Shown: positions 1,715 through 13,145, counted from the stretch's first letter. The stretch is DNA of 13,145 bases from a virus (IMGVR_UViG_3300005460_000112:1-13145); one strand, 5' to 3'. Numbers and translations are program-made. Notes: generated by a model from the sequence alone, not told the origin.

Positions 1715-1740
1715 AAATCCCCCTGGAATCTCGTATAGGT

Positions 1741-1941
1741 CTATTCGTCCGGCAATCCGTGACGGGTGATTAGATTCATCAACAGCTCCATCGACGGACT
1801 CGTTTTTCTGGACCCGCCCAACCATTGCCACACCGCCATTTCCGTCACACGCAACATCTGCGCAGCCTTTTTGACAGCAGAAGTTTTGGATCGCAAATGG
1901 TATCTGGACTGGACCCAATCAACAAATTCTTGAGGATTCAT
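1741..1941 (-). CDS. Small Cro/Aca/antitoxin-like helix-turn-helix protein (66 aa)
   Basis: This is the last gene of the leftward cassette, 14 nt downstream of the 102-aa gene. SKTSAVKKAAQMLRVTEMAVWQWL is a helix-turn-helix segment, followed by SMELLMNLI. It is a paralogue of the C-terminus of the 3104..3694 product (25 of 58 ungapped positions identical by hand alignment). Confidence 0.75.
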   Translation of the reverse strand: MNPQEFVDWVQSRYHLRSKTSAVKKAAQMLRVTEMAVWQWLGGSRKTSPSMELLMNLITRHGLPDE

Positions 1942-1955
1942 ATTTGAGCATTCAA

Positions 1956-2264
1956 TTATTTAATTTGATCAAATCGCTTCCCAACAGGGCCACATCTAAT
2001 GATGTCCCACCGCTGATAACCTTCGTCGTCAATTACTTCGTAGCAATAATCATTCCAATATTTTGCTATTGCATTTAGTGCTTCTTCTTGTGTTTTGTAG
2101 GTATAATAGCATGGTTCTTCGTTGACATCTTTGATGTAGTACGCAGCCAGAACAACCGCAAATTTGTGACCTTCCGGAAATTCAATGATGCGGTCATACT
2201 TGGGAGAGGAGATATCCGACAAAGACGTATCTCCAAACTTTTGAGGGATAATATATTTTTTCAT
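1956..2264 (-). CDS. Hypothetical protein (102 aa), AT-rich gene
   Basis: Clean ATG-to-TAA ORF with 15-nt and 14-nt gaps to its neighbours on the same strand. Composition is very AT-rich (line 2041-2100 is 18/60 G+C). I do not recognise a family. Confidence 0.7.
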   Translation of the reverse strand: MKKYIIPQKFGDTSLSDISSPKYDRIIEFPEGHKFAVVLAAYYIKDVNEEPCYYTYKTQEEALNAIAKYWNDYCYEVIDDEGYQRWDIIRCGPVGKRFDQIK

Positions 2265-2279
2265 GTGTTTGGTTTGTGT

Positions 2280-2648
2280 TTAAGCTTTCTGTTCGGTCAG
2301 GTTGACAATCCCGCGGGCCCACCTAAAATCGGCGCAGTCTATGATAGCCCCGTTAAATCTGGCTCCGGTTAGATGGGCCTTGTAAAAATTGGCCCATTTC
2401 AGATTGCCCCCGGCGAAATCGGTCCCGGTTAGATTGGCCCCGGTAAAATCGGCACATCTCAAGTCGGACCCTGTGAAATCAACTCCGGAACAGTCGGCGT
2501 CCTTAAAGTCAGCCTTGATTAAGTTAGCACCCCTAAAGTCGAGCCCCCTGAGGTCGAGGTCTTCAAATTTGGCCTGAGCGCCGCCTTCTTCCTCGTTCAG
2601 CCACATTTCGTGCAGTTTGAGAATTTCTGTTAATTCGTTTTTAGTCAT
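2280..2648 (-). CDS. Pentapeptide-repeat protein (122 aa)
   Basis: About 17 consecutive A(D/N)LxX-type pentapeptides (DLRGL DFRGA NLIKA DFKDA DCSGV DFTGS DLRCA DFTGA NLTGT DFAGG NLKWA NFYKA HLTGA RFNGA ...). They follow the N-terminal helix ..ILKLHEMWLNEEEGGAQA that is typical of this family. Confidence 0.9.
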   Translation of the reverse strand: MTKNELTEILKLHEMWLNEEEGGAQAKFEDLDLRGLDFRGANLIKADFKDADCSGVDFTGSDLRCADFTGANLTGTDFAGGNLKWANFYKAHLTGARFNGAIIDCADFRWARGIVNLTEQKA

Positions 2649-2656
2649 TGTCTTGT

Positions 2657-2674
2657 TCTTTCTGATTTGGTTTT
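2657..2674 (-). promoter_or_regulatory. Conserved 18-nt 5' leader element (minus strand AAAACCAAATCAGAAAGA), 8 nt upstream of the pentapeptide-gene ATG
   Basis: It is identical to 2953-2970 and sits at the identical distance from the start codon. Confidence 0.6.
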
Positions 2675-2686
2675 ATACTTGTTATT

Positions 2687-2944
2687 TTAGTCCCAATCTA
2701 CAACCACATCGTATTCTTCCGCTTTTTCAAGGATGTCTCTCACATCAACAAAGTCTTTTACTTCTTCCGGAACATTGCCGCTGACAAGTCCATGCCTTAC
2801 GCCGTGGACTTCCCGCACCGGGCAATAAAAATTATAGGTTCTTCCTTCTTCGTCATAGTTTTTCACCACTTCTCCGGCAATAGCTATTTCATGACGGTGA
2901 AAAGTGAATATTTCTCGGACTTTGTAAGTTTTATCAGCGTTCAT
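2687..2944 (-). CDS. Hypothetical acidic protein (85 aa)
   Basis: ATG at 2944 (MNADKTYKV...). The track ORF extends to 3028, but that extension runs through the conserved intergenic element. The same 18-nt leader as the pentapeptide gene sits 8 nt upstream of this ATG. By hand count there are about 19 D/E against about 11 K/R. No family recognised. Confidence 0.7.
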   Translation of the reverse strand: MNADKTYKVREIFTFHRHEIAIAGEVVKNYDEEGRTYNFYCPVREVHGVRHGLVSGNVPEEVKDFVDVRDILEKAEEYDVVVDWD

Positions 2945-2952
2945 TGTTTTAG

Positions 2953-2970
2953 TCTTTCTGATTTGGTTTT
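2953..2970 (-). promoter_or_regulatory. Conserved 18-nt 5' leader element (minus strand AAAACCAAATCAGAAAGA), 8 nt upstream of the 85-aa gene ATG
   Basis: It is identical to 2657-2674 and sits at the identical distance from the start codon. Confidence 0.6.
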
Positions 2971-2977
2971 GGATTGT

Positions 2978-3027
2978 GTCTTCGGGAGGTCCCTTACCTC
3001 CCGTCAACAAGGTCAATATACTAAACA
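2978..3027 (+). promoter_or_regulatory. Regulatory element, copy A; same orientation as copy B
   Basis: GTCTTCGG-7nt-CTTACCTCCCGTCAACAA-GGTCAATATACTAAACA. It can be read as TTACCT (2994-2999), a 17-nt spacer and TATACT (3017-3022). Only this copy is overlapped by a 7-bp-stem hairpin, GGGAGGT(2984-2990)/ACCTCCC(2996-3002). Confidence 0.45.
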
Positions 3028-3103
3028 ATGTTTAGTGATTCAAGAGAAAAAAATGAGAAAAAGAGAATTTTTTTTCGAAGCCGCCCCTTTTTTTATTCCG
3101 GTT

Positions 3104-3694
3104 TCAGCGGGGGAGATTTTTGGTCGTCCCTCGTTCCATGATTAAATTCATCAGGAGGTTCATGGAATCCGTGGGCGCGGGTTTGGAGTCCAGCCACCTC
3201 CAGATCGTCATGGGAGTCACGCCGATGATTTCTGCGGCACGATTGACCGCCGCCGTTTTGCTGTTCAAACGGTGTGCGGTTTTCAAAAAATCCAAAAACC
3301 GGAACAGCGTGTGAAGCTCCGCTCCCCCCTCTCCTTCGATGGAGGCTCCGTAAATATAAAATCCGTTCCCGTCGCCTGTGATTGCAGAAAAAATGAGTTT
3401 GTTTTCTGTGAGCTTTTCCCGAAGTCGTTGTTCCAACAAATCAACTTTAGCTTCGGGCAGCCAGGACGCGAAATAAATTTCCAGCGAGACGTCCAGATTT
3501 TCGTAATTTTCCACGTCTTCAACTTCTTCGCAATATTCGGGGTCTTGGAAAAGCAGCATGACGCCGCCCTCGTCAAGGGCGTTCAGTTCAACGCCGTCGC
3601 ATTCATCGGTTACTATTTTTTCCCGAATCAGTTCATCTTCCAGTTCCGTTCTGATGCGGTGCAGTTTTTCTTTCAATCCTGTAGTGACTTTCAT
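3104..3694 (-). CDS. Two-domain protein (196 aa): strongly acidic N-terminal domain fused to a Cro/Aca-like HTH
   Basis: ATG at 3694 (MKVTTGLKEK...) lies 17 nt downstream of the stop of the 94-aa gene. The track start at 3811 would overlap that gene. The C-terminus SKTAAVNRAAEIIGVTPMTIWRWL...SMNLLMNLI is an HTH paralogous to the 66-aa protein. Residues ~17-72 carry about 21 D/E against 2 K/R (hand count). Confidence 0.75.
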   Translation of the reverse strand: MKVTTGLKEKLHRIRTELEDELIREKIVTDECDGVELNALDEGGVMLLFQDPEYCEEVEDVENYENLDVSLEIYFASWLPEAKVDLLEQRLREKLTENKLIFSAITGDGNGFYIYGASIEGEGGAELHTLFRFLDFLKTAHRLNSKTAAVNRAAEIIGVTPMTIWRWLDSKPAPTDSMNLLMNLIMERGTTKNLPR

Positions 3695-3711
3695 TTTTTC
3701 TCGTGGTTGGA

Positions 3712-3996
3712 TTAGAGTCCGTTTTCGATAGCGAACCAAGTCGGAAGCTCCAGGGTGAGGCCTTCCATTTTGTAGTCTAAAACTCTTTTTACGATGCTTT
3801 TCGGAATCCACATTTTTCTATCGGAAGCCCTGAAGGAAAATTCCGCGTCGATGAAGAAAGCTTTTTCCGTTTCTTTCAGAATTTGAACGTCAACTTTAGT
3901 AAGTTTCCAAGTGTCTTTAATCTTCGATCCGATGTCGTTGCGGACAATAACTTCCGGCGTTCTGATCTCAAAGGCCTGGGCAATTTTCTTATTCAT
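3712..3996 (-). CDS. Hypothetical protein (94 aa), first gene of the leftward cassette
   Basis: ATG-to-TAA ORF diverging from terS across an 88-bp intergenic region. It contains ..EKAFFIDAEF...KMWIPKSIV...LELPTWFAIENGL. This WIPKS ... P.W.a..GL pattern recurs in small phage proteins I cannot assign to a named family. Confidence 0.7.
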   Translation of the reverse strand: MNKKIAQAFEIRTPEVIVRNDIGSKIKDTWKLTKVDVQILKETEKAFFIDAEFSFRASDRKMWIPKSIVKRVLDYKMEGLTLELPTWFAIENGL

Positions 3997-4019
3997 TTTC
4001 CGACTTGGTGTTAGATTAA

Positions 4020-4067
4020 GTCTTCGGTTAGATCTTACCTCCCGTCAACAAAGCTAATCTACTATCA
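4020..4067 (+). promoter_or_regulatory. Divergent-region regulatory element, copy B; putative rightward promoter of the packaging/late operon
   Basis: GTCTTCGG-6nt-CTTACCTCCCGTCAACAA-AGCTAATCTACTATCA. It can be read as TTACCT (4035-4040), a 17-nt spacer and TCTACT (4058-4063), 21 nt before the terS ATG. An 18-nt core identical to 2993-3010 is present. Confidence 0.5.
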
Positions 4068-4084
4068 TTTTGTGAGTATGTCAA

Positions 4085-4645
4085 ATGGAAAAATCTTATT
4101 TTGACGCGCTACTAAAAAAATCTTATCTTCCCGGAAGGAAAAAGAAAACTACCACCAAAAGAAAACCGGGGCGCCCCAGCCTCTACACCGAGGAACTGGC
4201 CGCCGAAATAGCCACCCGTCTTGCCAACGGGGAAACCATGAAATCCATCTGCGCCGATGATCATATGCCGGATGTTTTAACTGTCTGGAGATGGAGACAC
4301 GAGCGGGAAGATTTTTGTAAACTCATTCAACGCGCGCGGGAAGCGCAGTCGGAAGCCATGATCGACGCGTGTCAGGAGCTGGCCGACGAAGCCGCGAAAG
4401 TCGCCCTCGACCCGGAATGCGGCTCCGCATCCGTCGCCGCCAAGAAGCTCGCCATTGAAACACGGCTGAAAGTAGCCGCGAGGTTCGCTCCAGAAAAATT
4501 CGGAGACCGGGTCCGTCAGGACGTCGCCGGAGTTCCCGGCGCACCGCTGGAACGGAAAATCACGCTGGACCCCGATCAGCTAGCTCAGCTGCAGGAAGAC
4601 GAGAAAACCGCGCTGGAAACCATCGCCGGCAAACTCCATCCCTAA
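4085..4645 (+). CDS. terS: Terminase small subunit
   Basis: KPGRPSLYTEELAAEIATRLANGETMKSICADDHMPDVLTVWRWRHEREDFCKLIQRAREAQSEAMIDACQELAD...KLAIETRLKVAARFAPEKFGDR is the N-terminal HTH plus ..D..KW.a....P.KyGd pattern of a widespread TerS family. It sits directly upstream of terL. Confidence 0.85.
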   Translation: MEKSYFDALLKKSYLPGRKKKTTTKRKPGRPSLYTEELAAEIATRLANGETMKSICADDHMPDVLTVWRWRHEREDFCKLIQRAREAQSEAMIDACQELADEAAKVALDPECGSASVAAKKLAIETRLKVAARFAPEKFGDRVRQDVAGVPGAPLERKITLDPDQLAQLQEDEKTALETIAGKLHP

Positions 4646-12308: not shown

Positions 12309-12832
12309 TCCCCTCCATCGACCAAACCATATGCCGGCGCCTCATTGAACGCCTCAAGAGCCTGGGAGCGCTGAACTGCCACATCTTTGAACGGCCCTTC
12401 GACCCACAGTACGCCGCCAACGACATCATCATGTCGGCGATGGGCAACAACGGCGTCGTTCTGGTGTGTCCCGGAGAAGCCGCCGAATACCAGGACGGGC
12501 ACGGACAGACCGCCGTCCCGACCATGTGGCGTCAGTATTTCATCATCGCCGCCATTTATCACAACGCGTCCCTGTTCCCGAAAGAATGCCTGACGCCGGA
12601 TTACTATCTGCGCGCGCTGGGCGACCTGATTGAGGAAACCCTCTGGGACTGGAATCCTTTTCCCTTTGCCGCTTCCGCCTCCATGAAAGGAAAGGTCAAG
12701 GGCCGCTTCGCTTCCTCCGCCCGCATTGACGGCGAGGAACGGCAAATGAACGTTTTGACCGTGGACTACCGCGTCCCGGTCAACATCAACATAAGAAACC
12801 ATCCGCAATTCCATGAACACATCCAAAACTGA
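12305..12832 (+). CDS. Neck / tail-completion-like structural protein (Mu gp37/DUF1834-like or DUF3168-like, tentative)
   Basis: ATG 12305 overlaps the upstream TGA (ATGA). The track start at 12200 lies inside the upstream gene in another frame. The N-terminus MIPSIDQTICRRLIERLKSLGALNCHIF resembles the start of Mu gp37-type proteins. The position is consistent with that call. Confidence 0.5.
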   Translation: MIPSIDQTICRRLIERLKSLGALNCHIFERPFDPQYAANDIIMSAMGNNGVVLVCPGEAAEYQDGHGQTAVPTMWRQYFIIAAIYHNASLFPKECLTPDYYLRALGDLIEETLWDWNPFPFAASASMKGKVKGRFASSARIDGEERQMNVLTVDYRVPVNINIRNHPQFHEHIQN

Positions 12833-13145
12833 CAAGAAGGCCGTGCGGAAGAACGTCCCCAAACCGGACGAACCCCGCGAAACCGCCGACAAAACGCCGG
12901 CAACGCCGGACGAAAAGAAGAAAACCACTGACAAGAAGGCCGTGCGGAAGAGCGCCCCCAAACCGGACGAACCCCGCGAAACCGCCGACAAAACGCCGGC
13001 AACGCCGGACGAAAAGAAGAAAACCACTGACAAGAAGGCCGTGCGGAAGAGCGCCCCGAAGCCGGACGAATCTTCCGAAACCGCCGGCAAAACGCCGTCC
13101 GCACCGGACGAGAAGAAGAAAACAACTGACAAGAAGGCCGTGCGG
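12813..13145 (+). CDS. 5' part of an ORF encoding 33-aa K/P/D/E/T-rich tandem repeats; the 3' end lies outside the window
   Basis: ATG 12813 is in frame 3 and overlaps the upstream gene by 20 nt. The frame is open for 111 codons to the window edge, so it is missing from the track. Translation: MNTSK[TDKKAVRKNVPKPDEPRETADKTPATPDEKKKT][TDKKAVRKSAPKPDEPRETADKTPATPDEKKKT][TDKKAVRKSAPKPDESSETAGKTPSAPDEKKKT]TDKKAVR... Confidence 0.7.
   Translation, partial: MNTSKTDKKAVRKNVPKPDEPRETADKTPATPDEKKKTTDKKAVRKSAPKPDEPRETADKTPATPDEKKKTTDKKAVRKSAPKPDESSETAGKTPSAPDEKKKTTDKKAVR
12828..13145 (+). repeat. 99-bp perfect-phase tandem repeat, at least 3.2 copies, continuing past the window edge
   Basis: Units lie at 12828-12926, 12927-13025 and 13026-13124, with a partial unit at 13125-13145. 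Units 1 and 2 differ at 2 of 99 nt. Units 2 and 3 differ at 13 of 99 nt (hand alignment). The period is a multiple of 3 and is in frame with ATG 12813. Confidence 0.95.

Follow-up and report, generated by a model that had tools for sequence, protein, structure and literature searches.

In the 13,145-nucleotide viral sequence IMGVR_UViG_3300005460_000112:1-13145 (the whole stretch we analyzed, hereafter the window), six tightly packed minus-strand genes at positions 1741-3996 lie between the replication genes and terS, the small terminase subunit gene, of an Akkermansia phage. We found that this region is two operons, operon A (promoter, p94, p196) and operon B (promoter, p85, p122, p102, p66), each opening with a promoter-operator-leader unit and closing with a gene of one helix-turn-helix (HTH) family. 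That they are autoregulated accessory operons in a hotspot is in our judgment very probable; the whole explanation that we favor, namely that a temperate Akkermansia muciniphila phage has two tandem self-regulated accessory operons, whose cargo probably serves counter-defense or host take-over, we put at roughly one chance in two. The initial annotation, made from the sequence alone, had proposed an island of anti-CRISPR (acr/aca-like) or toxin-antitoxin (TA) genes at this place. The genes and their flanks are as follows.

Left flank, plus strand: 349-residue replication-region gene, stop at 1714
1741..1941, minus strand: p66 (66 residues), basic HTH protein closing operon B, predicted to repress its own operon through a type-1 operator
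1956..2264, minus strand: p102 (102 residues), operon B cargo, from a small uncharacterized family of ~90-residue phage proteins
2280..2648, minus strand: p122 (122 residues), operon B cargo, pentapeptide-repeat protein; predicted beta-helix, possible DNA mimic
2687..2944, minus strand: p85 (85 residues), acidic cargo, first gene of operon B
3104..3694, minus strand: p196 (196 residues), acidic N-domain plus C-terminal HTH, last gene of operon A; predicted to repress its own operon through a type-3 operator
3712..3996, minus strand: p94 (94 residues), basic cargo, first gene of operon A
Right flank, plus strand: terS, start at 4085

All six open reading frames (ORFs) were present where the initial annotation had placed them, and its gaps of 17 nt between p94 and p196 and 14 nt between p102 and p66 were exact; the remaining intergenic gaps in the cassette are 15, 38 and 159 nt, the last running from p196 to p85 (2945-3103). 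Mechanical ORF calls were longer for two of the genes, starting p85 at TTG 3028 (113 residues) and p196 at GTG 3811 (235 residues). We rejected these calls and kept the annotated ATG starts because the homologs are 85 and 196 residues long; moreover, the p85 extension would cross the promoter-leader. The cassette runs against all other genes, as had been claimed, the remaining credible genes of the window lying on the plus strand and exact copies in public contigs being called likewise. A Pfam-type family search identified the gene at 4085 as terS by its match to Sf6_terminase (E-value 2e-29). The four sampled G+C counts on which the impression of a mosaic composition had rested were reproduced (18/60, 26/60, 35/60 and 41/60), and the cassette as a whole has 44.6% G+C, compared with 55.2% to its left and 59.9% to its right. 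Computed net charges bear out that p85 (-8), p102 (-3) and p196 (-14) are acidic, with the N-terminal domain of p196 alone at -19; p122 has -6, and p94 and p66 each have +3. The assignment of p122 to the pentapeptide repeats was convincing (PF00805, 83.4 bits vs a gathering cut-off of 20.2, E-value 7e-24), as was the HTH domain common to p66 and p196, since p66 is 44% identical to residues 133-189 of p196 (E-value 9e-17).

It had been proposed that a small gene followed by an HTH gene recurs twice in the cassette. These pairs are the 3' ends of larger units whose boundaries had been misplaced, the real unit being a promoter-operator-leader, one to three cargo genes and an HTH gene. The 159-nt stretch separating p196 from p85 and the 88-nt stretch separating p94 from terS (3997-4084) are paralogous, sharing repeat families D1, D2 and D4 at 70-90% identity. 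Both hold sigma-70-like sites and the same 18-mer, which occurs twice in the window vs 0.01 times expected, and it is therefore from these paralogous promoter units that the two operons were recognized. Their parts are:

2945..3052, minus strand: operon B promoter-operator-leader unit (promoter scan, repeat families, alignment of 21 distinct copies in relatives)
3043-3038 and 3020-3015, minus strand: operon B -35 (TTGAAT) and -10 (TATATT), spacing 17
3036-3020, minus strand: operon B operator, palindrome ACTAAACA-T-TGTTTAGT, type 1
3010-2993, minus strand: operon B 18-mer TTGTTGACGGGAGGTAAG; leader of ~64 nt to ATG 2944
3997..4084, minus strand: operon A promoter-operator-leader unit (promoter scan, repeat families, 18-mer)
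4084-4079 and 4061-4056, minus strand: operon A -35 (TTGACA) and -10 (TAGATT), spacing 17
4077-4061, minus strand: operon A operator ACTCACA-AAA-TGATAGT, an imperfect palindrome, type 3
4051-4034, minus strand: operon A 18-mer TTGTTGACGGGAGGTAAG; leader of ~53 nt to ATG 3996

When the 21 distinct copies were aligned, the promoter-leader appeared as a portable unit of ~100 nt with a 17-nt palindrome between the -35 and the -10. The -35 of operon A abuts the terS ATG at 4085. The leader of operon B also holds, at 2975-2998 (minus strand), a perfect 8-bp hairpin, CGGGAGGT-AAGGG-ACCTCCCG, which is missing from relatives. We considered an RNA element in the leader on account of a 5' hairpin seen in single-sequence folds, and set it aside when RNAalifold gave no consensus pairs.

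The slot that holds the cassette was compared in ~50 related Akkermansia phage contigs retrieved with terS as the anchor; our counts use the 39 in which both flanks are visible. Over 78% of its length the window itself matches Akkermansia phage DTMo-2021a at 88.6% identity, with flank pieces at 83-94%, and DTMo-2021a is cassette-free, having 65 bp in place of window positions 1716-4135. Between the replication genes and terS there is essentially no spacer in 12 of the 39 contigs (DTMo-2021a and 11 others), and in the other 27 there is an antisense cassette of 1.0-2.8 kb with one or two promoter units. The alignment of relatives thus upheld the proposal of a variable island, modular where it is filled and with conserved flanks; an empty or alternatively filled slot between core genes, own promoters and deviating G+C are the features by which a hotspot is recognized. 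The two operons also occur apart. Module A is found alone in two loci (L002 and L004), module B alone in L006, where it is joined exactly at 3052 | 3997, and L005 has module B without p85 together with a diverged module A. The A/B boundary at 3052 | 3997 falls within the repeated promoter unit. The outer junctions are:

1715..1740: left junction, between the stop of the 349-residue gene (1714) and the stop of p66 (1741)
4085..4135, plus strand: right junction, terS codons 1-17, which vary with the cassette state

On the left, homology to DTMo-2021a ends at 1715, and cassette-bearing relatives with a different upstream gene match from 1721. On the right, homology to DTMo-2021a resumes at 4136. 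The first 17-31 terS codons differ according to the cassette state; terS matches that begin at residue 1 are confined to loci with the same promoter unit beside terS, and those in other loci begin at residue 18-32. In 21 loci (e.g., L032 5881-6396) a further minus-strand gene, c4, which is not in the window, separates the cassette promoter from terS; it encodes a 171-residue, Cys-rich, basic protein akin to the zinc-ribbon portion of HNH-endonuclease PHROGs (phrog_1271, E-value 5.6e-10).

The six-gene arrangement is widespread, as the exact p102 sequence was found in 66 index blocks, and it sits in prophages of Akkermansia contigs that adjoin the host ThiS and MutL genes. These prophages carry an integrase, RecT/YqaJ, a D12-class methyltransferase, replication genes, terS/terL and a Mu-like portal and protease, and all of their genes except the integrase and the cassette point in the lytic direction. 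Being integrated beside ThiS/MutL and having an integrase, the phage is temperate.

Following the genes downstream of every promoter unit, we found at least 11 operon architectures with the same promoter unit and HTH family (PRP, pentapeptide protein; A107, a 107-residue protein described below):

With window-type genes: [p94][p196]; [p85][PRP][p102][p66]; [PRP][p102][p66]
With A107 and p66: [p85][A107][p66]; [A107][p66]; [A107][p66-like, 62% identical]
With fusions: [201-residue N-domain-A107 fusion][p66]; [239-residue PRP-A107 in-frame fusion][p66]
With other HTH genes: [291-residue protein][77-residue HTH]; [A107][434-491-residue HTH multi-repeat]; [A107][311-residue protein, four tandem HTH copies]

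The constant parts of all these cassettes are the 5' promoter-leader unit and the 3' HTH gene of one family. The commonest cargo in the relatives is A107 (net charge -20, isoelectric point 4.05), which is absent from the window. p85 comes and goes independently of its neighbors, e.g., it is missing from L005 and is paired with A107 in L035. One locus (L043 706-1509, minus strand) has a single 239-residue ORF, counted from its ATG, in which the genes of the pentapeptide protein and A107 are joined in frame.

In the window p66 closes operon B and the HTH domain of p196 closes operon A, and an HTH gene is likewise the last gene of every related cassette that reaches one. p66 had only weak, sub-threshold matches to generic HTH families in Pfam (YdaS_toxin, 14.9 bits vs a cut-off of 30; HTH_23; P22_Cro), and neither HTH protein belonged to a described Aca (anti-CRISPR-associated) family in Pfam, PHROGs, NCBIfam or PADLOC. 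The C-terminal HTH of p196 (~125-188) forms four helices in an AlphaFold2 (AF2) model. Three operator types track three subtypes of these HTH proteins, with the cargo in between varying. Type 1, ACTAAAC-A(T/A)T-GTTTAGT, goes with the p66-type HTH (helix VTEMAVWQWL) at at least 12 distinct loci, including operon B of the window, and also with a 77-residue variant; at these loci the p66 copies are 90-98% identical and, irrespective of the cargo, invariably follow an ACTAAACA-N-TGTTTAGT operator. Type 2, ACTATAA-ATT-TTATAGT, goes with the HTH subtypes VTEDAVWKWL, VSEITIWKWL and VSEHTI.... Type 3, ACTATCA-N3-TGATAGT, goes with the p196-type HTH (VT(P/R/H)xT(I/V)WRWL), and in the relatives p196 is always downstream of an operator of this type. 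Three loci with a variant p94/p196 pair have perfect forms of it at the same position as the operator of operon A: L015 and L022 have a 10+5+10 palindrome, ACATACTATC-N5-GATAGTATGT, and L050 has a 7+3+7 palindrome, ACTATCA-ATT-TGATAGT.

Half-site changes among the operators are mirrored in both arms, as expected for the binding site of a symmetric dimer, and this pattern argues for a predicted autorepression in which an HTH dimer acts on its own promoter. The Aca families are similar in that an inverted repeat within the core promoter is the site of repression by the cognate Aca (PMC9410906, PMC6765145). Because the operator types of operons A and B differ, the two operons are predicted to be independently regulated.

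Some HTH genes of the relatives have composite structures. P0023 (141 residues) has two HTH domains, the second of which is a chimera of the N-terminal part of p66 and the C-terminal tail of p196 (...MERGTTKNLPR), and its sequence points to recombination inside HTH genes. The 434-491-residue form (e.g., L025 4403-5707) has an N-terminal p66-like HTH followed by ~8 HTH-like repeats of ~45 residues (phrog_323, E-value 3e-26), and the 311-residue protein (L049 4781-5716) consists of four tandem p66-like HTH domains.

A further explanation is that the HTH proteins, which have weak similarity to repressor, Cro and late-activator PHROGs, would be regulators of the phage life cycle (immunity, lysis-lysogeny or late-gene control near terS), with the small genes being ordinary early genes. 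The three operator/HTH specificities do resemble immunity types, and the operator of operon A lies just 8-24 nt upstream of the terS start codon. However, a core regulatory role is unlikely because 12 of the 39 loci have no cassette at all, HTH gene included, and one of these is DTMo-2021a, which was deposited as a complete phage record. In addition, each operator was found at one place only in the window, its own promoter, and c4 separates the cassette promoter from terS in the 21 loci mentioned above. Taken together, this explanation appears improbable.

The same data bear on the toxin-first type II TA system that the initial annotation had offered as its other reading. Here p94 would be a toxin and p196 its antitoxin (with a neutralizing N-domain and a repressing HTH, as in MqsA or HicB), and p102 and p66 would be a second such pair. 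The short gaps and the predicted autoregulation fit, as do a basic p94 beside an acidic p196 with a C-terminal HTH, faint HigA/MqsA-like HTH matches, and the finding that p94-type and p196-type genes co-occur in every locus holding either. However, p94, p102 and p85 had no match to a toxin family in Pfam, NCBIfam or PADLOC, and three genes rather than one precede the HTH gene in operon B. Moreover, the p94 and p196 alleles reassort across loci; p94s that are only 42-46% identical accompany near-identical p196s, and a 96%-identical p94 accompanies a 75%-identical p196. p66 is an HTH domain alone, and its copies, 90-98% identical, directly follow p102, A107, the 201-residue fusion and the 239-residue fusion. 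We disfavor the TA reading because a specific neutralizing antitoxin should not follow unrelated genes in this way; p66 has no neutralizing domain, so for the p102/p66 pair the reading is weak; for p94/p196 it is only marginally viable. Overall we regard a TA system as very improbable.

To return to the favored explanation of accessory operons with counter-defense or take-over cargo, the cargo proteins themselves proved to be largely orphans. Searches of Pfam, PHROGs, PADLOC and NCBIfam with the six products and two flanking genes gave, for the cargo, only the pentapeptide family and one PHROG of unknown function, and single-sequence and profile searches of the PDB gave nothing usable. In deep homology searches p94, p85 and p196 were confined to close Akkermansia relatives. 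p94 was the protein that matched the PHROG without assigned function (phrog_8389, E-value 1.5e-7) and fell into 3 clusters among 5.8 billion proteins; a variant of 93/94 residues, 42-46% identical, occupies the same position in L005, L015 and L050. p85 had 15 close clusters only, mostly of 85 residues, and p196 had 23, mostly of 196 residues. A tblastn search of 50,697 GenBank phage records with p94 and p102 found neither. An Rfam scan gave only a DUF805b RNA match inside the p94 coding region (3782-3813, minus strand; 23.1 bits vs a gathering cut-off of 35.6), which is probably due to chance.

The AF2 model of p196 (predicted local distance difference test, pLDDT, 72.6; predicted template modeling score, pTM, 0.51) has an acidic alpha/beta N-domain (~1-120) followed by the HTH. 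The best match of this model to PDB folds was a likeness to YajQ (E-value 0.04, template modeling (TM) score 0.28), which we treated as noise. Fusions of anti-CRISPR (Acr) and HTH domains exist (PMC10901769, PMC9638941), and p196 may combine effector and repressor in one bifunctional protein. In several public assemblies (P0015-P0022) the p196 gene is frameshifted or truncated, at 108-136 residues; in L088 (3001-3327) and L090 (3001-3455) such genes are remnants, without p94 and without the promoter unit, in a different ~36-kb Akkermansia element. The frameshifted variants P0016 and P0022, considered as evidence on the TA reading, proved to be remnants of this sort and so say nothing for or against it.

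p102 was the only cargo with distant relatives, 25 of which were found by phmmer in 1.84 billion representatives; the family conserves residues D24, R25, Y43, T55 and G82. Its AF2 model (pLDDT 78.7, pTM 0.72) had no fold match in the PDB (best E-value 1, TM score < 0.35) or in BFVD (best E-value 0.1). The distant relatives are in antisense accessory slots of unrelated phages. In L069 (71-1859) the relative is part of a five-gene antisense operon, closed by a RepB-RCR_reg ribbon-helix-helix (RHH) gene and convergent with the O/DnaC/Dam/NinB/NinG/Q genes of a lambdoid-type phage. In L072 (5001-5417), from an unrelated phage, it stands alone as an antisense gene immediately upstream of a Terminase_2 terS, and its N-terminal extension is RHH-like by eye, with no Pfam hit on record. 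The contigs obtained in three further searches for the surroundings of p102 relatives were too short to be of use. An RHH-type Aca, Aca14, exists, and Aca-regulated operons hold unannotated candidate anti-defense genes (PMC13551039).

p122 also matched PHROGs without assigned function, and was far below the NCBIfam equivalog cut-offs for Qnr (31.3 bits vs 240) and MfpA (27.3 bits vs 360). Pentapeptide proteins are mentioned as suggested DNA mimics in a paper citing Shah and Heddle (PMC7261183).

The acr/aca-like candidacy put forward in the initial annotation stands as far as the layout goes, with small cargo, a terminal HTH gene and, in the core promoter, an inverted repeat whose type changes along with the HTH subtype; no homology to a known Acr, Aca or anti-restriction protein was found in Pfam, PHROGs, NCBIfam or PADLOC. 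We envisage that the promoter would fire when the HTH protein is absent, e.g., at the entry of phage DNA, and that the HTH dimer would then build up, bind its own operator and block RNA polymerase, so that expression would be capped as Aca repressors cap acr operons. Differing operator/HTH specificities would insulate operons A and B from each other. Cargo would be swapped by recombination, for which the promoter-leader unit would supply one junction and the HTH gene probably the other. The cargo proteins would most likely be stoichiometric inhibitors of host proteins, and the pentapeptide protein and the very acidic domains might act as DNA mimics. We prefer such a counter-defense or take-over role, which we infer from products that are small, mostly acidic and devoid of a recognizable enzymatic domain, from the pentapeptide beta-helix, the rapid turnover, the Aca-like brackets and the fusion-like look of p196.

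Several observations weigh against this explanation. The -35 and -10 sites are matches to consensus only, in a phylum (Verrucomicrobia) whose promoters are poorly characterized, and the operon A operator of the window is an imperfect palindrome, with 5/7 in its left arm. The covariation of operator and HTH may in part reflect linkage, because the operator and the HTH gene are within 0.4-1.1 kb of each other. No cargo protein matched an annotated anti-CRISPR, anti-restriction or other anti-defense family in Pfam, PHROGs, NCBIfam or PADLOC; p94 is basic rather than acidic; the p196 and p102 models yielded no fold match, as given above; and the pentapeptide DNA mimics McbG and QnrB did not inhibit bacteriophage exclusion (BREX) (PMC7261183). 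Lastly, the cassette points the same way as the integrase and against the lytic genes, an orientation more usual for morons expressed from a prophage than for early lytic genes.

This last point fits the main rival explanation, in which the cassettes are morons expressed from the prophage, the HTH feedback holding their expression constant and the products benefiting the lysogen (superinfection exclusion, anti-phage defense or host physiology). A promoter for each cassette, low G+C and a variable slot between conserved genes fit this, negative autoregulation also suits steady-state expression, and antiviral systems occupy comparable hotspots of P2/P4-like elements (PMC9122126). However, no PADLOC defense model matched the cassette products, which are 85-196 residues long, mostly acidic, without a match to an enzymatic domain in Pfam, PHROG or NCBIfam and without a hydrophobic segment as judged by eye. 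Most known defense and exclusion proteins are larger enzymes or membrane proteins. A107 and the pentapeptide protein have the look of binding or mimicking proteins, not of effectors. We therefore consider a moron role somewhat unlikely, and keep counter-defense or host take-over as the preferred role of the cargo.

A broader form of the favored explanation, which we offer tentatively and think possible rather than probable, is a cassette-exchange platform. In this case a portable promoter-operator-leader and a cognate HTH gene would bracket swappable cargo, and at least three orthogonal specificities would permit tandem stacking. The cargo (p85, p94, p102, the p196 N-domain, A107 and a short pentapeptide DNA mimic) would comprise several new families of defense inhibitors, and the p102 family would be used by unrelated phages in the same antisense position beside terS with RHH regulators.

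Two further features of the window lie outside the cassette. At 115-179, ~40-64 nt at the start of a 189-residue gene are 93-95% identical in L002, L004, L005 and L007 despite differing surrounding genes, and the stretch has a match in Akkermansia phage Chambord, which is otherwise unrelated; a role as conserved junction or regulatory element is possible. At 12828-13145, following a plus-strand ORF of 210 residues and extending to the right end of the window, there is a tandem repeat with a 99-nt period (3.2 copies, 93% matches), which probably encodes a 33-residue repeat in a structural or tail-region protein.

Akkermansia muciniphila, a candidate probiotic, is a key commensal of the human gut, and to our knowledge very little is known about how its phages contend with host immunity. 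If the cargo proteins are defense inhibitors, a single locus would yield several new families, and the promoter-operator unit or the HTH family could serve as a search rule for more of them in phages of Verrucomicrobia. If they act in the lysogen instead, they may underlie traits that phages confer on a bacterium relevant to health. For a host with few genetic tools, the three matched operator/HTH pairs would offer ready orthogonal repressor parts, and natural phages with zero, one or two cassettes are a ready comparison set.

Among known systems, the pentapeptide proteins Qnr, MfpA, McbG and AlbG resemble p122 in their clear pentapeptide repeats and net negative charge; p122 is shorter (122 residues vs ~180-220), reaches only 27-31 bits where the equivalog cut-offs are 240-360, and is phage-borne. 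The HigBA, MqsRA and HicAB systems have the same order of a small gene and an HTH gene with short gaps and predicted autoregulation. They differ in that our proteins have no toxin homology, p66 has no neutralizing domain and a promiscuous upstream neighbor, and operon B has three upstream genes. Morons and the P2/P4 hotspots share with the cassettes a fixed slot between core genes that is either empty or filled with alternative, low-G+C, independently transcribed genes (PMC9122126). Unlike in the P2/P4 hotspots, the genes here encode small proteins bracketed by a dedicated repressor/operator pair, with no recognizable defense systems. p196 is comparable to the fusions AcrIIA1, AcrIIA15 and AcrIF24 in joining an autorepressor-type HTH to a strongly acidic domain at an accessory locus (PMC10901769, PMC9638941). 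It has neither homology nor a fold match to these, its own operon has a separate cargo gene, p94, preceding it, and the domain order is reversed relative to AcrIIA1 and AcrIIA15, the HTH of p196 being C-terminal; an inhibitor role for its N-domain is speculation.

The closest likeness is to the acr-aca operons (families Aca1-Aca14), such as acrIF1-aca1 of the Pseudomonas Mu-like phage JBD30 and acrIF8-aca2 of Pectobacterium phage ZF40. In both cases an operon of one or more small cargo genes ends with the gene of a small DNA-binding protein, an inverted repeat lies in the core promoter, the cargo varies with the regulator conserved, and operons can stand side by side (PMC9410906, PMC6765145, PMC13551039). 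Our putative counter-defense cassettes showed no sequence kinship to known Acr or Aca proteins and are antisense to the whole phage genome. They also have a promoter-leader of ~100 nt that is conserved across cassettes with unrelated first genes, and an HTH family that extends to 4-fold tandem arrays and multi-repeat proteins of 434-491 residues. The kind of system is thus already known, a regulator-bracketed accessory or anti-defense operon in a phage hotspot. What is new is the HTH family with its three operator types, the portable promoter-leader in its role of recombination junction, two orthogonal cassettes stacked in tandem, and several orphan cargo families, all in a group of phages from a gut bacterium of medical relevance.

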